54,423 nt of DNA from Candidatus Levyibacteriota bacterium (lineage in GTDB: Bacteria > Patescibacteriota > Microgenomatia > Levybacterales > GWA1-39-11), in the NCBI GenBank assembly GCA_030645455.1, contig JAUSNA010000018.1, positions 1 through 54,423 of the forward strand, read 5' to 3'. Below are positions 44,710 through 54,379 of the stretch, one piece after another. Both the position numbers and the translations under genes were made by a program. Position 1 is the stretch's first letter. Each line of letters begins with the position of its first letter. A model generated the notes under the pieces. The model was not told the origin of the DNA. It saw only the letters and a list, made by a program, of their open reading frames with translations, and searched no databases.

Positions 44710-46317
44710 TTATTGAACAAGCAGAGTGGTAGAAGTATTGGTTGGTGTGTATGTAAATCCGGATTTTACAATATTTGTAACGGTTGCTGTAAATATCCCT
44801 TTTTCTTTCGAACGGACTGAAACTTGAACCTCACCCGTTGATGAAGTATTTTTGGTAAATGCTGTCATCTTTCCTGAAGGTGAAGTAATAGACATTGATA
44901 CCGTAGCTGAGGAAACTACAGCGTTTGTTGAAGTATCGGCTATTCTAGCTTTTGCATAAATTGTTTTGGTGGATGTAAACCCTGTGAAGCGCATAGTAAG
45001 GGCTGTAACAGTCATTTCCTTAGAAACCGGCGTGGATGTAGGAGTGGGGGTAGGACTTGAAATCACGGTTGGAGTAGGAGTAATCGCATCAACTAAAACA
45101 ACCGACTTGTAAGCATTAATTTTTCCCTTTTGCCAATAAGTACCCGTTCCGGCAATCCCATCCGCATTTGATTCAATTTTTTCTCTCACGCATACATTTG
45201 TGGTACAGTCCCCCTTGCCCCATACAAGACCCGCAAGTCCTGCAACAAATGGTGAGGCCATCGATGTTCCAGAAAGAGATGCATACGAATTTCCCTTGAA
45301 TGATGAATATATTGAAACTCCGGGAGCTGCAACATCTACCCATGACCCATAATTTGACCAGCTTGCTTTATTGTTGTTGCTGTCAATTGCAGCGACTGCT
45401 ATAACATTTGTATAGTACGCTGGGTAATGAGGACTTTGCGAAGAGCTGTTTCCGGCCGCAGCAACAATAACCACTCCCTTTTGCCATGCATAATCTATTG
45501 CGTCTTGAAGTGCGGCTGATGAAGACGTACCTCCCAGACTCATATTAATAACTTGTGCTCCGTTGTCAGCAGCCCATACTATGCCATTTACTATCCATGA
45601 ATAATAACCCGACCCGTCATCACCCAGCACCTTTCCATTCATAAGTGACGCATCATAAGCAGTCCCCCCAATACCAACTCCATTATTTGTCGAGGCAGCA
45701 GCAATTCCTGCCACGTGGGTTCCATGACCGTCAACATCAGCCGACGTTGAGCTGGTTGTAAAATTTGCCGATGCAACTATTTTCCCCTGCAAATCACTGT
45801 GAGATGGATCAATACCCGTATCAAGAACTGCAATCTTTACGCTAGATGAACCGGTTGTAACATCCCACGCACTTGTTCCTCCATTTTCCGCAGCATCTAT
45901 TGAGAAAAGTCCCCATTGAGTTGAAAGGGAAGGATCATTTGTAACCATTGATTTTGCCGCAACAGCGTTGGGTTCTGCATATTCTACGTGTGGACTTCTC
46001 CTATATATCTCCACTAATTTGTCAACCATCCCATCAGGTACTCCTAAAACCTCTACCCGGATGGGGTCAATCTTTAGCTTCACCTTTCCACCCAAATCTT
46101 TTACCACTTTTTCACGTATGGATGTTGCTATTTGCGGCTTGAATTTAACAATTATTTCATTTGTAGAAAATTTTTGAGCTTGTGCTTGCCTTGAGGGAAA
46201 AACGAAGTTAAAAATAACTCCGCCAATAAGAGCAAATAATAATGCGTGAATTACGAATGAATGGAGAGAGAAAAACTTATATCGGAACTTTTTTACAGTT
46301 CTCTTTTTAGATTTCAT
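44710..46317 (-). CDS. secreted subtilisin-like serine peptidase (S8) with I9-type propeptide and C-terminal beta-rich domain
   Basis: 535 aa. N-terminal TM/signal, catalytic triad blocks AVLDTGID, HGTHVAG, SGTSMASP, a PTPTVISSPTPTPTSTP linker and a C-terminal Thr/Ser-rich domain. Confidence 0.9.
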   Translation of the reverse strand: MKSKKRTVKKFRYKFFSLHSFVIHALLFALIGGVIFNFVFPSRQAQAQKFSTNEIIVKFKPQIATSIREKVVKDLGGKVKLKIDPIRVEVLGVPDGMVDKLVEIYRRSPHVEYAEPNAVAAKSMVTNDPSLSTQWGLFSIDAAENGGTSAWDVTTGSSSVKIAVLDTGIDPSHSDLQGKIVASANFTTSSTSADVDGHGTHVAGIAAASTNNGVGIGGTAYDASLMNGKVLGDDGSGYYSWIVNGIVWAADNGAQVINMSLGGTSSSAALQDAIDYAWQKGVVIVAAAGNSSSQSPHYPAYYTNVIAVAAIDSNNNKASWSNYGSWVDVAAPGVSIYSSFKGNSYASLSGTSMASPFVAGLAGLVWGKGDCTTNVCVREKIESNADGIAGTGTYWQKGKINAYKSVVLVDAITPTPTVISSPTPTPTSTPVSKEMTVTALTMRFTGFTSTKTIYAKARIADTSTNAVVSSATVSMSITSPSGKMTAFTKNTSSTGEVQVSVRSKEKGIFTATVTNIVKSGFTYTPTNTSTTLLVQ

Positions 46318-46672: not shown

Positions 46673-48241
46673 ATGAATAAACTAAAAAGATTTTTAATAG
46701 GAGCAACAGCAGGAGTAGCAATACTTGCAAGAGTAGTGCTTCCTGCAGGTGCTGATAGCACAGTAGTAATCTCTGGTAATACCTCAGCTGGTGAAAATCA
46801 GCCTGGATGGTTATTTAACAGAGACATTTCTACAACCACTCCATTCGAGTTCAATTCGGCTCAACCTAGTATTGGTACAGGAAGTTTATACGTTATGCCA
46901 ATTGGTGCGAATGCATCAGACAAGTTCATAGCTGAGAACTTTGTAAATACTCCAATTGCAAACGTTAATTCTATTTCTTACGACTTCCGAATAGGAAGTG
47001 GCGGGGATGCGAATGATGATGAACACTTCTATATGAATGTGTATGCAAATTTTGGATCATCACCAGATAACAAGTTTTATGATTGTCGCTATAACGTAGT
47101 GCCAACAACAGGCTCAACTGCCAGTTTTACAACTGTAACATTTAATCCTTCTTTGGCTTATCCCGTAACACAAAGTGGCTCATCACCATTTACGTGTCCG
47201 TCGATACCTAATGATATGAATACTTCAAGCCCTATCTCAACCATAAGAGTTTTTACTCTTAATGTTGGTGACACATCGGTAAATGATCAGGGTTTGGATG
47301 GGTATCTGGATAAAGTTGTAGTTAATCTTGATGATTCATCGGGTATTACTACCTATGATTTTGAACCACTTCCAGAGACGGTCACTGTGACCATTGATAA
47401 ATATATTGATGGTACAAAGGCTACAGCGACAACCGCTGACAACTCAGCTTTTCCGATGAGTGCGACATGGAACGCAACAAATATCGGAGCGGGTTCTGGT
47501 AATTATGATTTGGATGCTGATGGATTCAACAATATCCCAACACCATATCAGGCAATTACTTCAGAAATGACAGCTGGAGCTGATTACACTACGAATGAAG
47601 TAACTGGCGGCTCAGTTGTGGGAGCTAGTTGTTCTACTGGTCAACCATATGCATTGGTTGGGTATACGACTGGGGATACTTTCTCAGAAGCCCAAAGCGG
47701 TACACCAAGTTCTACTATTCCAAGTTTCACAGATCTTGACAGTGATAAATATGTGATTGTCTGGAACATGACTTGTCCAGATGTTACACCAACTCCAAAT
47801 CCTTTTGCTATTCCTGCAGAATGCAGTGCAATAACAGGACTTGGTGCTCCAATCGTTGGTACGAATGGCAGCGAGGTCATCAATGGAACTAATGGAAACG
47901 ACCTCATTTTCGCACTAGGCGGAAGTGATGTAGTCAATGGTAAAGAAGGCAACGACTGTATAGTCGGAGGAGATGGAAGTGATTCTCTCCATGGACAAGG
48001 TGGAAATGACGTAATTCTTGGAGGAAATGGCAGCGATGCCATCCAAGGAGATGCCGGTAATGATTGGCTTTACGGCCAAGATGGAAGCGACTCCGTAAAG
48101 GGAGCTTCCGGCAACGATCATCTTTTCGGAGGAAATGGATCCGACTCTCTCAAGGGAGATGGAGGAACAGATAGCGCTGATGGAGGCGCAAATAGCGATT
48201 CATGCAACGCAGAAACTGAAGATGTTTCCTGCGAAGCATAA
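46673..48241 (+). CDS. secreted protein with C-terminal hemolysin-type (RTX) calcium-binding nonapeptide repeats
   Basis: 522 aa. Sec-type signal MNKLKRFLIGATAGVAILARVVLPAGA. About 11 consecutive 9-residue repeats (GGSDVVNGK EGNDCIVGG DGSDSLHGQ GGNDVILGG NGSDAIQGD AGNDWLYGQ DGSDSVKGA SGNDHLFGG NGSDSLKGD GGTDSADGG). SD GGGGGTGA. Confidence 0.85.
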   Translation: MNKLKRFLIGATAGVAILARVVLPAGADSTVVISGNTSAGENQPGWLFNRDISTTTPFEFNSAQPSIGTGSLYVMPIGANASDKFIAENFVNTPIANVNSISYDFRIGSGGDANDDEHFYMNVYANFGSSPDNKFYDCRYNVVPTTGSTASFTTVTFNPSLAYPVTQSGSSPFTCPSIPNDMNTSSPISTIRVFTLNVGDTSVNDQGLDGYLDKVVVNLDDSSGITTYDFEPLPETVTVTIDKYIDGTKATATTADNSAFPMSATWNATNIGAGSGNYDLDADGFNNIPTPYQAITSEMTAGADYTTNEVTGGSVVGASCSTGQPYALVGYTTGDTFSEAQSGTPSSTIPSFTDLDSDKYVIVWNMTCPDVTPTPNPFAIPAECSAITGLGAPIVGTNGSEVINGTNGNDLIFALGGSDVVNGKEGNDCIVGGDGSDSLHGQGGNDVILGGNGSDAIQGDAGNDWLYGQDGSDSVKGASGNDHLFGGNGSDSLKGDGGTDSADGGANSDSCNAETEDVSCEA

Positions 48242-48301: not shown

Positions 48302-48910
48302 ATGAATATCAAACAAAAATTAACAAGTGCAGCCGTAATAGGTGCAATGATGGCGGCTGTAGTAGCCCCGGCATCATTTGCCGCAACTGTTAAAATCAAG
48401 AAAAACGGTGCAGGTTCTACCAATACAGCAACTGTTGTAAGTAAGAAAAAAACAATAGTTAGCCAATACAATGGAACTGCAGTTGTAAATCTTGTTGGAG
48501 TACTCCAAAATACCGGAGTAAATTCTGCAAATGGTAATACCGGAGATGGCAGCGTAGACGTTAACTCAGGTGCTGCTACATCAACAGTTACCAACACGAC
48601 AACAACCGGAGGAAATAACGCAACCGTTAATCCTTGCGGGTGCGTAGATCCGAGTACTAATGTTGTCATCAAGAAAAACGGTGCAGGTTCTACCAACACT
48701 GTAACAGTTGTAAGCACAAGTAAGACAGAGGTTGAACAAGTTAACGAAACTCTTGTTATCAACGGAGTGCTTGTCGCTCAGAATACCGGCGGAAATTCCG
48801 CAAACGGTAACACCGGTGACGGTGGAGTAAATGTTGACTCTGGCAATGCTACATCAACAGTTACCAACACGACAACAACCGGAGGAAATGCATACACTCC
48901 TACTCTATAA
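48302..48910 (+). CDS. secreted protein made of two copies of the N/T/G-rich GNGAGSTN module
   Basis: 202 aa. Signal peptide ending ASFA-A. Two 91-aa repeats ([10 protein letters not shown]...QNTG.NSANGNTGDG.V.V.SG.ATSTVTNTTTTGGN) separated by PCGC. Strong SD GGGAGGTG. Confidence 0.85.
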   Translation: MNIKQKLTSAAVIGAMMAAVVAPASFAATVKIKKNGAGSTNTATVVSKKKTIVSQYNGTAVVNLVGVLQNTGVNSANGNTGDGSVDVNSGAATSTVTNTTTTGGNNATVNPCGCVDPSTNVVIKKNGAGSTNTVTVVSTSKTEVEQVNETLVINGVLVAQNTGGNSANGNTGDGGVNVDSGNATSTVTNTTTTGGNAYTPTL

Positions 48911-48946
48911 GTAGGCAGGGACATTCCAAAAGTTACTAAGTGTAGA

Positions 48947-48978
48947 AAACCCCCCATTGCCCGGGGGGTTTTTCTTTT
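48947..48978 (+). terminator. intrinsic terminator after the 202-aa repeat-protein gene
   Basis: AAA-CCCCCC-ATTGCCC-GGGGGG-TTTTTCTTTT: a 6 G-C pair stem plus a T-tract. Confidence 0.75.
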
Positions 48979-48994
48979 GTCTAAACCCATAGTT

Positions 48995-49023
48995 TTGACT
49001 TGCGCCCCCATTTCTTATATAAT
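48995..49023 (+). promoter_or_regulatory. near-consensus sigma70 promoter upstream of the GC-enriched cassette
   Basis: TTGACT (48995-49000), 17 nt, TATAAT (49018-49023). Confidence 0.6.
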
Positions 49024-49119
49024 CACACAACTTTTTGCTTAGCTCATACGTTTTAATTTGCTTTAAAACCGATTGGTCTATTTGCTAACTGTAACGCACC
49101 TTTACAACACATTCTTGTA

Positions 49120-49172
49120 GAGTTTTATCTCGCAGAGCCCCGAGTAAATCGGGGTTGTGTGAGATAAAACTC
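49120..49172 (+). promoter_or_regulatory. 53-nt extended hairpin in the cassette leader
   Basis: GAGTTTTATCTC (49120-49131) pairs perfectly with GAGATAAAACTC (49161-49172). There is an inner 6-bp stem CCCCGA/TCGGGG with loop GTAAA. No U-tract follows, so it is not a terminator. Confidence 0.5.
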
Positions 49173-49196
49173 AAATCAACATGAAGGGAAATTACT

Positions 49197-49361
49197 ATGA
49201 AACAGTTAATCATGGACATCGCTGCTGTTCTCATTCTATTTGTAGCTGGACTCATCGAGTTCACCCAATGGAGAAGGGGGTCCCCGCCAAGGGTATGCAT
49301 TATGCTCATTTTAATCAGCATCGCAATAATAATCGTGGTACATATAAGCATCATCACCTAA
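49197..49361 (+). CDS. small two-helix membrane protein (54 aa; below ORF-track cutoff)
   Basis: ATG 49197 is preceded by AAGGGA. Product MKQLIMDIAAVLILFVAGLIEFTQWRRGSPPRVCIMLILISIAIIIVVHISIIT has two hydrophobic helices around a basic loop. I prefer it over the His-rich 86-aa ORF (49181) and the antisense 90-aa ORF. Confidence 0.45.
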   Translation: MKQLIMDIAAVLILFVAGLIEFTQWRRGSPPRVCIMLILISIAIIIVVHISIIT

Positions 49362-49394
49362 GTTCACGACCAGAGTTTGATCTAAGGAGTAGAA

Positions 49395-49589
49395 ATGCCG
49401 GAAGTCACAAGGATCGATATCTTCGAAATGGTTCGGGGTAATTTCCCCAACCTTTCCGAAGAAACACAGCTTGAACTGGCGGATAAAATAAAGTCACTGC
49501 TGGAGTTTGCGGCAAATGATAAGATAACGGACCTTAAATGGGTAAAGAGGGTGATTGATGCCCTGGCCGTATCTGCTCGACTTCAATGA
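49395..49589 (+). CDS. hypothetical protein (64 aa)
   Basis: Strong SD TAAGGAG 5 nt upstream of ATG 49395. Helical-looking, acidic. No motif recognised. Confidence 0.55.
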   Translation: MPEVTRIDIFEMVRGNFPNLSEETQLELADKIKSLLEFAANDKITDLKWVKRVIDALAVSARLQ

Positions 49590-49685
49590 GAGGACTCAGA
49601 ACGAGTCCTAGGACTCTTCTTATCTATCCGAACATCGCATAAATTCACACCCGCGTATAACGCCAGAAGGCCTGAGGAGGCACAG

Positions 49686-50195
49686 TTGAAAAAGATCCTT
49701 GTTCTTATCCTGACCATTGTGGCCGTGTCTTTCACCGCTTGCGGCGACAGACCGGACACTCAAGAACCAAAAGTTCCAACTCAGGCTCCGAGAATTCCAA
49801 CGCCGGCAGCACCCGCTCAGCCAGGCATCACAATGCCTCGTAGTAGTAGTTGCACAAACAGCGCCGTCATACTAACAGGGATTGCCCTGGATCAGACGGT
49901 ATTCGATAGCCAGGTGACTAGTTTCAACCTCTTGGGTTGCTTCACGAGACCGGATATCTTCGTCGAAGCGTCCCCTCAGCTAGGGTACGTCTTGAGTTTG
50001 GCGATTGCCGATCGCAACGCAAAACACCCCTTCAAGGACGTTGAAGAGCTGACGAAGTTCTCCGAGGAATTCCTCACGGATTTCGTAAAAGTCACCCTCG
50101 GTGATTCGTATCTAGTCCTTGAGAACGTCAAAACAACGTACCAATTGAGGCTCTTTCCGGTCATAAAAAAGAAAACGACCGGACCAACTGCCTAA
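49686..50195 (+). CDS. putative lipoprotein (169 aa)
   Basis: TTG start with SD GAGGAGG 5 nt upstream. Signal peptide plus lipobox-like MKKILVLILTIVAVSFTAC-GD, a Pro-rich linker and a globular C-terminus. About 53% GC against a ~39% background. Confidence 0.65.
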   Translation: MKKILVLILTIVAVSFTACGDRPDTQEPKVPTQAPRIPTPAAPAQPGITMPRSSSCTNSAVILTGIALDQTVFDSQVTSFNLLGCFTRPDIFVEASPQLGYVLSLAIADRNAKHPFKDVEELTKFSEEFLTDFVKVTLGDSYLVLENVKTTYQLRLFPVIKKKTTGPTA

Positions 50196-50328
50196 CACAG
50201 GAATGTGGGCCCGCATAGCGGGAAACAAACCCGCCTACGCGAAAGCTACGGCGAGGTAAAGGTGTATCTCGGGGGAGGTGAGGATCAAGCTCTACTTGAT
50301 TTCCTTTCCTCTCCCATACACTAACTCT

Positions 50329-50358
50329 AGGTAATAGTTATTAGTGATTAGGAAATAG
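50329..50358 (+). repeat. copy 2 of the ~30-nt stop-codon-rich intergenic element (AGGTAATAGTTATTAGTGATTAGGAAATAG)
   Basis: 27/30 identical to the reverse complement of 37908-37937. Confidence 0.6.
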
Positions 50359-50374
50359 TAAAGATCAGAAAAAG

Positions 50375-50406
50375 ATTGCTTCTCCCGATTTAATCGGGAT
50401 CGCAAT
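50375..50406. repeat. REP-like nested hairpin between the convergent lipoprotein and sortase genes
   Basis: ATTGC-TTC-TCCCGA-TTTAA-TCGGGA-TC-GCAAT. The outer GATTGCTTC...GCAATGACA flanks resemble a palindromic word element I recall as common in uncultivated-bacteria genomes. Confidence 0.45.
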
Positions 50407-50438
50407 GACATAAATCCACAATACTTAATACGTGATAC

Positions 50439-50993
50439 TTATTCCGGATTTGCAAAAATCAACAATCGTTGCAAGGCTGTACCTATTGGTGTACACGTCT
50501 GCAGAATAAGAACGTCCCCCTGAGGTTCTGTCAAATACTTAACTTCATTTGGCCAAACTGTTTTTTTGTTAATAACTTTATACTTATACTCCTCCCCATT
50601 CATTCTGATAATAATAGGGTCCCCTCTATCTATCAGCTCCAGCTTGAAAAAAGCTGTATTATAACGTGTAATTCTCCACGGAACATCCGATGAATGAGCA
50701 AAGAGAAAGACAGTCTCCCCCTCCCCGGGCAATGCTGAATTTTTTGCGTGTGCTACTCCATTTCTTAGCTCCAGTAAATACTCTTTTTCATTGAATGGAT
50801 CGACACTAGGTATAATTTTTGAAAATACTTTTAGACTTGGGATTTCAATTGAGAAATTTTCTGATATTTTTTGCTCTTCCGTTATTTTTGGAGGAAATAA
50901 TAATTCTTTGAAATACGGGTAATAGATAAAAAGGAATCCTAAAAGAGAAAGCGCCATCAAGGCGCTTCCGGTGTTTTTTTTGAGGTTGTGCAT
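50439..50993 (-). CDS. sortase family transpeptidase (second copy)
   Basis: 184 aa. N-terminal TM helix, His in VFLFAHSS, Cys in LILQTCTPIG, Arg in LQRLLIFA. It starts 27 nt downstream of the LPATG protein gene. Confidence 0.85.
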   Translation of the reverse strand: MHNLKKNTGSALMALSLLGFLFIYYPYFKELLFPPKITEEQKISENFSIEIPSLKVFSKIIPSVDPFNEKEYLLELRNGVAHAKNSALPGEGETVFLFAHSSDVPWRITRYNTAFFKLELIDRGDPIIIRMNGEEYKYKVINKKTVWPNEVKYLTEPQGDVLILQTCTPIGTALQRLLIFANPE

Positions 50994-51020
50994 ACGTAAA
51001 TCGTATCAAGGGGGCTACCT

Positions 51021-52157
51021 TTATGCAATGGTAGGCGGTGGGGCATTGGAACCATGAAACCGCAGATACAGCCCGGAAAGGAACATAAAGAATAAAAGAA
51101 GAGTTGCAATAAGTGTGTATGGAATAGTTGAACCGGTTGCCGGAAGCATTGCACCTACCGCAGGTCCATTAGGGCCAGTGCTTCCTGAAGACGGTTGTAC
51201 ATAGGAATCCCCAGGTTTGACAGTTGGATTTGTAGGGGGTGTTACCGGTGGAGTTACCGGTGGAGTTGGAGGCTCTTCTTTATCCGGATTGCATGTGCCG
51301 CACTCAATTTTTGTGAAATTGCTGTTAATATTCTCGTTATTGATTGTTATGTCGCTTTGTATGTTTCCGGTAACAATAGCAGTGTCTCCCAGATTTTTGA
51401 GTGTTTCATTTCCTCCCGTGTTCAACTGCTGTTCTACATTATTTAATATTTCTGCGATATTAATATTTGTGACTATTATATTTGAGTTATCGTTGATAAC
51501 CGCATTGTTAAATGAATACGCTCCATTTCCTTTTATAATTACCGAATTTCCCCCCATTATATCGACTTGCCCGTCGTAGTAAGAGTTGTTGATATTTTTA
51601 TTATTGATGTTAGTTGTTGCTGATATATTACCCGTTACGATTGTGGAATTACCCCCATTGAATGATGCTTTGTTATATCCCGTATTAGCGTTAACAGTTA
51701 TGTTATTGTTAATTGAAGCGTAGTTATTTTGGCTGACCAAATGTGTCGAAGAACTATTAGCAACTCCTAAATTTGTTGATCCTGCTCCATTCCCACTGAT
51801 ATTTACCGATGTATTGCTGTTGCAGCAACTTGTAGTTGATGCTAGGTTGGAATTAATATTTTCGTTACTAACATTAGTAGTGCTTGCTGTGTCCCCTGTT
51901 GAAATAGCAGTTTCCCCACCGGTATTAAGATTTGCGTCATTATTTCCGGTATCTGCATTTGAATCAACATTGTTGGTAACATTTGCCTCATTACTTTGGG
52001 CAACCTCTGTGGTCGTTTGAGTTTGGACTTGGACTTGATTATTGGAGCTTCCCCCATTGCCTGTGACCTCTATAACTATTTCTTCGGCTTTGGCACTTGA
52101 GGTTATCGAGAGGTTGAGTAGTAGGCAGGTGATAAAAATCGCTGCCTTTTTCATCAT
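51021..52157 (-). CDS. LPXTG-type sortase substrate built from three N/T/G-rich modules
   Basis: 378 aa. Signal peptide ending SSAKA-E, 3 modules (GNG[GA].S.N...Q.N.A.[VI].N...A.TG.N...TG), a PTPPVTPPVTPPTNPT linker, then LPATG (51132-51146), a 23-aa hydrophobic stretch and RFHG. This is a canonical cell-wall sorting signal. Confidence 0.85.
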   Translation of the reverse strand: MMKKAAIFITCLLLNLSITSSAKAEEIVIEVTGNGGSSNNQVQVQTQTTTEVAQSNEANVTNNVDSNADTGNNDANLNTGGETAISTGDTASTTNVSNENINSNLASTTSCCNSNTSVNISGNGAGSTNLGVANSSSTHLVSQNNYASINNNITVNANTGYNKASFNGGNSTIVTGNISATTNINNKNINNSYYDGQVDIMGGNSVIIKGNGAYSFNNAVINDNSNIIVTNINIAEILNNVEQQLNTGGNETLKNLGDTAIVTGNIQSDITINNENINSNFTKIECGTCNPDKEEPPTPPVTPPVTPPTNPTVKPGDSYVQPSSGSTGPNGPAVGAMLPATGSTIPYTLIATLLLFFMFLSGLYLRFHGSNAPPPTIA

Positions 52158-54379
52158 AAGAACATATGTATTCCTCTTACTGCGAGTCTTTGGACAGGAA
52201 CAAATGATTTTTTAGCGAGTAGCACAATTCCAAAAAGTGGAAGCGCAAGAAGTATCCATGCAAGATTAATGGTGAGTTTTTTATCAGCTACTGCTGCAGA
52301 ACCGTCTTGCCCTACGCTTTTTGCAACAGTAGCCTCAAGTGTATTGGTTCCTCCTCCGGATTGTGTTCCTTTTATTGCACCCGCAAGACTGGTATTGCCC
52401 GAATTATTAACAACTACTGTTGATCCTGCACCTGCTTGGTTTCCTGTTGCTGATGCAACTGTAGATGATCCACCACCGGCACCTGAATTTACTTGAGGGC
52501 TCTCGTAATTTGTGTTATTTTCATGCTGTAACGTCCCACCGTCAGCTACATTATTTTTAGTCTGTCCCGGTGCTACAAAGTCACCGAGCCAGCTTCCGAA
52601 TACATTGATGACTGTCACAACCAATTTTCCGCCTCCTGTTATATTATTGTTAACAAAGTTGACAAGATTTGCGATAATTTTTGCGTCTCCCGTTACGATA
52701 TCTGAATTTCCACCTGTATTAAATTTAGAGTCATTTCCTCCGGTATTGGCCGATAAATCAAGTGTATTATTTACAACCGCGTTATTTGTCTGAGTTGTTG
52801 TGTTGTTGGTTGTATTTGATGCGCTTGCCGTATTTGTAGAATTTGCTCCATTAGCGTCATTTACAGCTGTTACTTCGCCTGTTATCGGGTCAACAATGAA
52901 TTCTGTGCCATCAGATCCTGCCATGCTGGACCCATCCGGTGAGCCAAGAATTTTACCTATCCATTTGCCGCCCTCGTTGACAATGACAAGCCACCAATTG
53001 CCTCCCATTATATTGTTGTTAGCGATATTAAGTATATTTGCCGTAAGTGAAGCATCCCCTGTTTCAATCGATGAATTTCCATCGGTATTAAAACTCGTGT
53101 CATTTGCTCCCGTATTTGCATCAATGAGAAGTGTGTTATTTATCTGGGCATCATTTGTCTGAGTTGTTGTATTGTTGGTTGTATTTGTAGCATCGGCTGT
53201 GTTGGTTGAATATGCTCCATTTCCTGTATTTGATGCGGTTGTTGTACCCGTACACGTACCTCCGCAAGCTGCATTCATTGCCTCTTCGGTAAGAATGATG
53301 TCACCGACTAGATCACCGTAGATATTTACTACTCCGAATATAACGTCACCTGCTATATTATTGTTAGCAAAGGTCATAACATTTGCATTTACATTTGCAT
53401 CCCCTGTTGTGATGGATGAATCTCCTCCCGTATTAAAGCTTGCGTCATTATTTCCGCTATCGGCGCCCAGTACTAAAGTGCTACCTACATTTGCATCATT
53501 TGTTTGGGTGGTATTATTGTTGGTTGTGTTGGTCGCGTCTGCAGTATTTGTAGACCCTGCTCCGTTATTTGCATTATTTACATTAAGTGCGGATCCTTCA
53601 CATCCCTGAGTGCAATTGGCACCAAAGTCAAGAACGATGTCTCCTGTGTGATCATCTACCACATTGAATTCACTAACCATTATTCCATCAACATTTGTAT
53701 TAACTGATGTAATAACAGTTGCCGTAGTATTGGCGTCCCCGGTTGTAATAGAAGAGTTGCCAACATTATATGAAGTGTTGTTGCCTCCCGTGACAGTTGC
53801 TTGGTTAAGGTCGTTACTGACAACCGCGCTATTCCCTTGCAATGTGTCGTTATTATTTGTGGTTGTTGCTGATCCGCTATTGGTAGACCCTGCTCCATTT
53901 CCTGTGTTTGCAACTGCTGCACCTGTCCCTGCGCAAGTATTGCATCCTGTTGCCAAATTATTATTCCCCGTTGTATTGATGTTACTATCATTATTTCCAT
54001 CTCCGGTATTTATTGCCGTATCCCCAACATTTCCTGACCCTGACGATCCTTCTTGAGCCGGTTGTTCATCGGTAGATGATGTTGTTACTGGTGCTTCTGG
54101 AGCAGTTGGTGCTGTTGGGGCGATATATGGATTCTCTGGAGCAGTTGGTGCGGTTGGAGCACTTGGCGCTTCTGGAGCAGTTGGTGCTTCTGGAGCAGTT
54201 GGTGCTGTTGGGGCAGTTGGTGCTTCGGGAGCTGTTGGTGCTTCGGGAGCTGTTGGGGCATCGGGAGCTGTTGGGGCATCCTCAGCAAATACTGCTGCCG
54301 GAATTGTGACTAATTTGCCTGATAACAACACCAGTATCAAAAGTGTTGATATTATTTGTTTGATTTTTTTTATATTCAT
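52154..54379 (-). CDS. large surface protein: signal peptide, (A/E)PTAP repeat stalk, four long N/T/G-rich modules, C-terminal TM anchor
   Basis: 741 aa. [32 protein letters not shown] signal, a proline-rich repeat, 4 modules of ~110-120 aa each starting N.GNGA.STN, and a C-terminal TM helix [21 protein letters not shown]. 4-nt ATGA overlap with the LPATG gene. Confidence 0.85.
54089..54283 (-). repeat. in-frame tandem repeat encoding [12 protein letters not shown] units (9/18-nt periodicity)
   Basis: Peptide [66 protein letters not shown]. The plus strand shows reiterated GGAGCAGTTGGTGCTTCT-type units. Confidence 0.8.

Follow-up and report, generated by a model that had tools for sequence, protein, structure and literature searches.

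A sortase-associated cluster of secreted repeat-module paralogues conserved across Microgenomates

Architecture of the repeat-protein and sortase locus

The stretch of DNA analysed here (54,423 nucleotides; hereafter the window) is contig JAUSNA010000018.1 of a Candidatus Levyibacteriota bacterium (GenBank assembly GCA_030645455.1). Near its end three genes lie together on the minus strand, encoding a membrane-anchored repeat protein (A, 52154..54379, 741 aa), a second repeat protein with an LPXTG-type sorting signal (B, 51021..52157, 378 aa) and a sortase (50439..50993, 184 aa). The start of B overlaps the stop of A as ATGA, and 27 nt separate the B stop from the sortase start; A and B are translationally coupled. 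All three open reading frames (ORFs) lie where an earlier reading of the sequence alone (the original prediction) had placed them. Their description as one tightly packed unit also holds, but the conserved cluster is bigger and runs upstream past the window edge; the window ends 44 nt upstream of A, and the upstream genes of the cluster would lie beyond that point. A further gene identified from the ORF list and the module search, C (48302..48910, plus strand, 202 aa), encodes the same repeat module and was absent from the earlier account. The window carries the 3′ half of a gene cluster, probably for a surface structure, that Microgenomates have in common. The host is, as supposed, a reduced-genome organism, namely a bacterium of the candidate phyla radiation (CPR) in the Microgenomates group, with Levybacteria-like metagenome-assembled genomes (MAGs) as its closest relatives.

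Proteins A, B and C each bear a Sec-type signal peptide (cleavage sites of A and B read from the sequence) and share a module of ~75 residues rich in Asn, Thr and Gly. Nine full copies are present in the window, with 28-72% pairwise identity in the alignment; by hmmsearch domain coordinates, four fall in A (together with an N-terminal half copy), three in B and two in C. The module consensus opens with I-x-G-N-G-x-x-S-x-N ... Q-x-N-x-A-x-I-x-N-N and continues with A-N-T-G-x-N-x-A-x-x-N-T-G-x-x-x-I-x-T-G-D-A ... N-x-N. Cysteine pairs (CC, CxxC or CxxxC) are conserved in the segments between modules of A and B.

In protein A the signal peptide (residues 1-32, cleavage ...VFA/ED) is followed by a Pro/Thr (PT)-rich low-complexity segment (54056..54283, minus strand; residues 33-108, read from the translation) and a module array (52559..54043, minus strand), delimited by hmmsearch and by the high-confidence beta segments of an AlphaFold2 model. 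The array comprises one half module (113-142) and four full modules (156-234, 267-346, 383-461 and 506-584), with a conserved insert after each: a CxxxC pair in the first insert, a hydrophobic beta-hairpin plus a CxxxC pair in the second, and hydrophobic beta-hairpins in the third and fourth. Invariant columns across the A family are occupied by N, G, Q, W, F or C. The protein ends in a C-terminal anchor (52154..52279, minus strand), recognised from a family-wide tabulation of C-termini and from helix 597-615 of the model, in which the sequence K-x-INLAW (here KKLTINLAW) precedes a hydrophobic helix of ~17 residues with a central Pro and then a polybasic tail. Nowhere in that tabulation did A carry a sorting signal; a transmembrane (TM) anchor is found instead. 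A cryptic sortase motif within the TM segment (LPLFG, LPLAG or LPLTG) was considered and rejected, as only the Pro of the pentapeptide is conserved.

The signal peptide, the four modules and the C-terminal TM anchor of A had thus been described correctly, with the half module as an addition. The PT segment is present, but it follows the signal peptide, at the far end of the protein from the C-terminal membrane anchor, and so is not a membrane-proximal stalk. The wall is more likely spanned by a G/S/T/N-rich segment that is disordered in the AlphaFold2 model (residues ~608-700). A match of A to the NCBIfam model 'IgA Fc-binding protein BAC' (35 bits against a cutoff of 1700) covers the PT-rich segment only, and was dismissed as composition rather than homology.

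Protein B has a signal peptide (residues 1-24, cleavage AKA/EE), three modules (29-108, 118-194 and 206-283), a conserved CC pair (111-112), a conserved CxxC pair (286/289) and the Pro-rich linker PTPPVTPPVTPP. After the LPATG motif (51132..51146, minus strand; coordinates verified) come 23 residues without charge, most of them hydrophobic (STIPYTLIATLLLFFMFLSGLYL), and next RFHG, the tail of this protein reading G-L-Y-L-R-F-H-G-S-N-A-P-P; orthologue C-termini delimit this hydrophobic segment and conserved tail (51021..51131, minus strand). The signal peptide, the three modules, the linker, LPATG, the hydrophobic stretch and RFHG had all been predicted. B thereby has the three features that define a sorting signal (LPXTG, hydrophobic segment, positively charged tail), while the curated anchor models Gram_pos_anchor (Pfam) and TIGR01167 give no match at E<=1; the sole model matched is that of the EF0750 LPXTG subfamily, and weakly so (16 bits, cutoff 47).

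Related loci were collected by scanning GTDB, at one genome per species, with the sortase alignment as query; this yielded 175 relatives, of which the best 80 loci were analysed. The motif LP[AVIRMTEDS][TS]G occurs in 68 B orthologues, alongside one MPVTG variant, and its X position is A in 29, V in 22, I in 6 and other residues in the rest. Across 68 orthologue C-termini the segment beyond the TM stretch follows the pattern G-x-Y-L-R-[FL]-[RHG]-S-G-x-[SA]-P. The sorting signal is retained in 70/70 evaluable loci, in favour of the original prediction. The tail is unusually conserved over ~70 species, which suggests that this sortase subfamily, or another membrane factor, recognises more than LPxTG. 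The 54-kb window has no LPXTG protein besides B, and the 1,971 ORFs of the 80 loci contain LPXTG-type C-termini of the B type only (69, plus 2 truncated copies).

The third gene encodes a sortase, as proposed from its His (FAHS), Cys (QTCTP) and Arg (QRLLIF) motifs, which lie at residues 98, 165 and 175. The protein matches Pfam PF04203 (E=6.7e-20, 71.5 bits, cutoff 26.6) and TIGR01076 (49.1 bits, cutoff 39.35), and His100 (FAHSS), Cys167 (LILQTCTP) and Arg176 are invariant in a seven-sequence alignment. Its layout is compact: an N-terminal TM segment at residues ~10-27, a linker of ~20 residues and a catalytic domain (49-183), with the C-terminus 8 residues past the catalytic Arg and no C-terminal TM segment. 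The subfamily signature VDP[FYW]N is invariant and, by its placement in the alignment, falls inside the domain after beta1 rather than at the position of a lid; since the Pfam domain begins ~20 residues after the TM segment, there is no room for a lid. Among solved structures in the PDB, its nearest relatives by sequence belong to class C, at E values of only 1.5e-8 to 5e-8. The top NCBIfam model is likewise that of class C (NF033745), with 59.7 bits where the cutoff is 160; the models for classes D, E and GN score far too low as well. Judged by these scores, the enzyme represents a new, minimal sortase subfamily outside every NCBIfam class A-F model. Its pairing with the LPATG protein as enzyme and predicted substrate is strongly supported by sequence and gene order.

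The original prediction held that the layout copies Gram-positive sortase-dependent pilus loci. Canonical sortase pili are marked by the presence of several LPXTG pilins, by a pilin motif with a conserved lysine and by a sortase of class C. Under such a model B would be joined to B, or to A as a base, by isopeptide bonds, and the compact cluster with its dedicated sortase, together with the class C affinity of that enzyme, fits this scheme. As in Spa/Fim/RrgB-type pili, secreted repeat proteins, an LPXTG signal and a sortase are encoded in one compact locus. Unlike in those systems, however, only one protein carries LPXTG, A being without a sorting signal; no Lys is conserved in mature B (best column 57%) and none is invariant in A (best column 82%, outside the modules); Pfam detects no CnaA/CnaB or other pilin domain; and the sortase falls far short of class C, with neither lid nor C-terminal TM segment. 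As the tests for class C features, lysines, number of LPXTG proteins and pilin domains were all negative, a covalent sortase-polymerised pilus is very improbable, and the claimed correspondence to pilus loci is not supported.

Conservation of the cluster in related genomes

The sortase subfamily lies directly downstream of a three-module [L/M]PxTG protein in effectively all evaluable loci (70/70). Under the strict definition, in which the three-module LPxTG protein ends <=250 nt upstream of the sortase, the count is 66/70; the other four comprise two with wider spacing, the MPVTG variant and a read-through ORF that still contains LPATG. Directly upstream of B, a protein of >=550 aa with 4-5 modules is found in 59/62 loci, the exceptions being two split ORFs and one absence. 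The same order (~750-aa protein, ~380-aa LPXTG protein, sortase) was recovered in 6/6 separate contigs, where B orthologues share 37-53% identity. Homologues of these proteins are therefore consistently linked to a sortase, in the 70/70 loci as in the six contigs.

Conservation extends upstream of A, beyond the part of the cluster represented in the window. A secreted four-module protein of ~420 aa is encoded there in 58/60 loci, a small DUF2292 (PF10055) protein in 56/60 GTDB loci (for example L005:5895-6134) and a single-TM membrane protein of ~250 aa in 56/57 loci. The DUF2292 and ~250-aa genes are kept upstream almost as strictly as the sortase is kept downstream. Examples of the ~420-aa paralogue are L005:6356-7630, L001:4302-5669 and L003:4356-5615; its C-terminus is a conserved hydrophobic stretch, ...F-x-F-x-x-A-L-x-A-F-F-G-M-x-x, that no basic residues follow and that could be a distinct anchoring or docking element, unlike the sorting signals known to us. 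On the other side, 40/70 loci, and also L001-L006, have a two-module gene of ~200 aa on the opposite strand, in the 40 loci no more than 3.6 kb downstream of the sortase. In the window this gene is C, which consists of a signal peptide and two modules (30-107 and 121-199), has no anchor and is convergent with the operon. The conserved cluster thus comprises 6-7 genes.

Homologue searches with A and B, in each of which 8,000 candidates were scored, returned 936 A homologues from Microgenomates lineages and 491 B homologues, both at E<=1e-10. Where a taxon is stated, it is Levy-, Davies-, Ames- or Woesebacteria, 'Microgenomates group' or 'Patescibacteria group'. The homologues carry no functional names, except for two Joint Genome Institute (JGI) labels that are evidently automatic. 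Many cluster-bearing GTDB MAG records (L009-L019 and others) are titled 'uncultured Gammaproteobacteria bacterium' (a TPA_asm batch), and single records bear the names Saccharimonadales and Acidiferrales; the genomes are evidently from Microgenomates, and such titles look like placeholders or errors. Compared across the same genomes, A is 56-62% identical and the sortase 59-65%, while B is only 44-56% identical. The lower conservation of B relative to A and the sortase fits B as the more exposed component.

A cluster this widespread could also be a housekeeping part of the Microgenomates envelope, forming a continuous, protective surface-layer (S-layer)-like coat that maintains envelope integrity. 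Its presence in most sampled Microgenomates representatives with this sortase is consistent with such a role, and a published study (PMC6744442) describes the sortase family as near-ubiquitous in this group. In some genomes the cluster also adjoins dcw division and cell-wall genes; this adjacency is not conserved, however, and since it occurs in only some genomes it was not used as functional evidence. The nusA-infB-pnp genes are its neighbours in the window and in L005, and other genes elsewhere. Neither Pfam nor NCBIfam shows similarity of the proteins to S-layer proteins or SLH domains. A coat would in any case overlap with the co-assembly of paralogues that we propose below, differing only in geometry (sheet versus fibre) and role, and we consider it distinctly improbable as a separate explanation.

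A new module and its possible assembly

The module was searched against Pfam and NCBIfam with no match at E<=1, and against PDB sequences (phmmer with single proteins, and two profiles) with none at E<=10. No curlin, Fap or chaplin family was matched in Pfam or NCBIfam, and the PDB sequences that gave no match at E<=10 include the CsgA and FapC chains. The idea that the building block lies outside the known families is thereby upheld at the levels of Pfam, NCBIfam and PDB sequence, and by the lack of any significant structural match; neither profile nor structure searches assign it to a characterised adhesin or pilin family. The module is nevertheless abundant. It occurs 673 times across 80 independent genomes, and a profile built from the window modules retrieved 2,422 50%-identity clusters among 1.84 billion representatives, 1,534 of them at E<=1e-10. 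Module proteins from this cluster search hold 2-10 copies each, and a few also bear DUF11 or dockerin domains, which are extracellular. As judged from these searches, the ~75-residue module is a new extracellular repeat domain family without a Pfam entry. Literature on sortases and LPXTG proteins in CPR, Patescibacteria and Microgenomates, and on functional amyloids in Patescibacteria, yielded no description of the module or the cluster. Besides the near-ubiquity noted above, a sortase is mentioned in one Microgenomates genome paper (PMC7143001), and we found no report of a substrate for a Microgenomates sortase.

Structures were predicted with AlphaFold2 from 87- and 95-sequence alignments, with A modelled as residues 110-741. 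The model of B is all-beta and consists of three repeats of one unit (mean pLDDT, the predicted local distance difference test, 73.8; pTM, the predicted template modelling score, 0.52). That of A is likewise all-beta (mean pLDDT 66, pTM 0.62), with model residues 503-592 disordered (+109 gives full-length numbering) and a C-terminal helix. Every module in the A and B models has a common strand pattern, including an unusual strand of 31-33 residues, and pLDDT exceeds 90 over the NTGG...I.TGDA...N.N part. Foldseek searches of both models against the PDB returned nothing at E<=0.001 and no significant match to a pilin. The functional amyloid FapC ranked first for both (E=0.008 and 0.24), ahead of beta-solenoids and CsgA, none of them significant and all with TM-scores <=0.13; the recurrence of FapC and beta-solenoids among model-based matches can serve as a lead only. 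In the alignments of A and B, the invariant columns are nearly all Asn, Gly or Gln, a pattern resembling the ladders of beta-solenoid and amyloid proteins, and an Asn/Gly-ladder architecture of this kind is plausible on sequence grounds.

Based on this anatomy, we propose that a single surface fibre or coat is built by non-covalent co-assembly of the paralogues, a reading to which we assign a probability of roughly 45%. Once B is exported, its C-terminal hydrophobic segment would keep it in the membrane. The sortase would cut between Thr and Gly of LPATG and then transfer B to an amine of a peptidoglycan precursor, leaving B covalently bound to the wall; these steps follow the established sortase pathway. 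A would be retained by its C-terminal TM helix and reach through the wall on the disordered spacer of ~90 residues. A single module would in this way be presented in four anchoring states, namely in membrane-bound A, in wall-bound B and in two unanchored proteins, the ~420-aa paralogue and C. It is these four states, together with the coupling of A and B, that lead to the co-assembly proposal. The module would act as a homotypic beta-sheet assembly unit. A and B would nucleate or tether the structure at the cell, and the two free paralogues, C and the ~420-aa protein, would supply its bulk or terminal subunits. The likely role would be display on the cell envelope, either to attach to a host cell or substrate or to protect the surface.

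The main rival to co-assembly is that the proteins are independent, monomeric surface adhesins; the S-layer-like coat is a geometric variant of the co-assembly model. According to the adhesin reading, B would be a wall-bound monomer and A a membrane-bound one, the paralogues would be duplicates with separate targets, and the repeat arrays would form rigid beta rods or binding surfaces (for host glycans, mineral or ice), with the sortase anchoring B only. Wall anchoring alone would fully explain the sortase and the LPXTG motif. The rare DUF11 and dockerin fusions are in keeping with a generic repeat that serves extracellular structure or binding. The non-significant Foldseek matches include flat beta-solenoids rich in Thr and Asn, among them a Ca2+-dependent antifreeze adhesin domain, and the faster evolution of B compared with A is typical of exposed adhesins. 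The adhesin reading does not, however, account for four paralogues with four anchoring modes kept in a fixed order over at least six candidate phyla, and it leaves the translational coupling of A and B unexplained. Moreover, the conserved positions correspond to backbone-type Asn/Gly/Gln ladders rather than to a variable binding face. On balance we regard independent adhesins as somewhat unlikely.

Several observations weigh against co-assembly into a fibre or coat. Comparison of the module with CsgA by hhalign gave a probability of 0.1, and the Foldseek matches to FapC and CsgA have probabilities <=0.11 and TM-scores <=0.13. A division of the module into three solenoid rungs of ~25 residues was tried and abandoned, as hhalign self-comparison produced no off-diagonal alignment; with no sub-repeat, and with strands of 31-33 residues predicted at moderate confidence, the fold is not established. 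Gene C is found near the sortase in only 40/70 loci and may therefore be accessory. Finally, the LPXTG count covers the loci, and the sortase may have substrates elsewhere in the genome.

A bolder form of the co-assembly proposal is that the cluster specifies a new class of bacterial surface polymer in Microgenomates. Here a non-covalent, amyloid-like or beta-solenoid fibre or sheath would be built from the four paralogues, nucleated by the TM-anchored one, stapled to the wall by the sortase and extended by free subunits, and would be the pilus-like or surface-layer material observed on ultra-small groundwater bacteria, with a use in host attachment. We consider this full version unlikely as it stands.

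Among known systems, the closest organisational logic appears to be that of the Streptomyces chaplins and, more loosely, of curli CsgB/CsgA, although the building block is unrelated in sequence. Long Streptomyces chaplins with sortase signals tether fibres of short chaplins that share the same domain (PMC5618241). Like the proteins described here, the chaplins (ChpA-H) are secreted paralogues with one assembly domain in varied copy number, some LPXTG-anchored and some free. The chaplin domain, however, is ~40 aa long and hydrophobic, whereas the present module is ~75 aa, rich in Asn, Thr and Gly, and without a chaplin match in Pfam. In addition, the sortase is here encoded in the cluster, one paralogue is TM-anchored, the host belongs to the CPR rather than the actinomycetes, and amyloid character is that of a candidate only. 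Curli (CsgA/CsgB) and Fap (FapC/FapB) similarly combine strand-turn repeats rich in Asn, Gln and Gly with major and minor paralogues that share the repeat, but the structural likeness is non-significant (E>=0.008, TM-score <=0.13) and there is no sequence or profile similarity. Those systems are also diderm and use outer-membrane secretion channels, where this locus has a sortase and no such channel.

Proteins anchored by housekeeping sortases, such as the microbial surface components recognizing adhesive matrix molecules (MSCRAMMs), resemble B in having a signal peptide, repeats, a Pro-rich wall-spanning linker, LPXTG, a hydrophobic segment and a basic tail, and their membrane-anchored sortases share the His-Cys-Arg triad. 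They differ in that the repeat domain is new here, the sortase lies outside classes A-F, the sorting signal has an extended tail, and substrate and enzyme are strictly syntenic with three more paralogues. Sortase anchoring of an LPXTG repeat protein is thus already known, while the domain family, the minimal sortase subfamily with its extended signal and the multi-paralogue cluster in a large uncultured lineage are new.

Microgenomates are almost entirely uncultured, and to our knowledge the ways in which CPR/Patescibacteria build their surfaces and attach to hosts are largely obscure apart from type IV pili. The present analysis pairs a Microgenomates sortase subfamily with a specific, strictly syntenic predicted substrate. 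If the module self-assembles, the cluster would represent a new type of monoderm surface polymer with chaplin-like logic; if it does not, the module proteins would still make up the principal family of wall-anchored surface proteins in a large lineage of bacteria.

Neighbouring genes and other features of the window

The region between gene C and the sortase gene contains a terminator-like hairpin (48945..48973) directly after C, with an 11-pair stem that includes 6 GC pairs. It is G+C-rich and has T-runs on both sides, as in a bidirectional terminator. Rfam scans of the window and of 48900-50450 identified no RNA family, with sub-threshold matches on the terminator hairpin only, and no tRNA or tmRNA genes are present in the window. 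After the hairpin comes a near-consensus sigma-70-like promoter, TTGACT-17-TATAAT (48995-49023). Two small ORFs follow, one for a hydrophobic peptide of 54 aa (49197-49361) and one of 64 aa with a strong AAGGAG ribosome-binding site (49395-49589), and then a 169-aa lipoprotein-like ORF (49686-50195). Local G+C content is raised over 48945-49700 (0.454 against ~0.40).

Beyond C, a plus-strand gene (46673-48241) convergent with the operon encodes a secreted protein of 522 aa with C-terminal RTX Ca-binding nonapeptide repeats (PF00353, E=5e-18). Its N-terminal ~380 aa belong to no family, and this N-terminal domain was found in 2/80 related loci. The RTX protein was considered as a part of the system and set aside as a loose neighbour, given that RTX-type neighbours occur in only 19/80 loci. 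On the minus strand, a gene adjoining those for surface proteins (44710-46317) encodes a subtilase (Peptidase_S8, E=7e-56) whose N-terminal prodomain resembles that of fervidolysin. S8 peptidases also lie beside the cluster in L003 and L008, and a role in surface-protein processing is possible. The flanking nusA, infB, pnp and subtilase genes are ordinary chromosomal genes.

An LTD (lamin-tail) or Peptidase_M73 (TasA-like) neighbour was not detected in the window. In several related genomes, by contrast, LTD and Peptidase_M73 (camelysin/TasA-like) genes follow the cluster (L001:11505-13414, L002 and L006:12829-14660). Proteins of the TasA family make up biofilm fibres in Bacillus and, in archaea, bundling pili, and a second fibre system may thus be co-located with the cluster in these genomes. 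Within the window, GC skew stays negative throughout the first ~46 kb (-0.07 to -0.24 per 2 kb); from there on, where the plus-strand genes begin, it is near zero.

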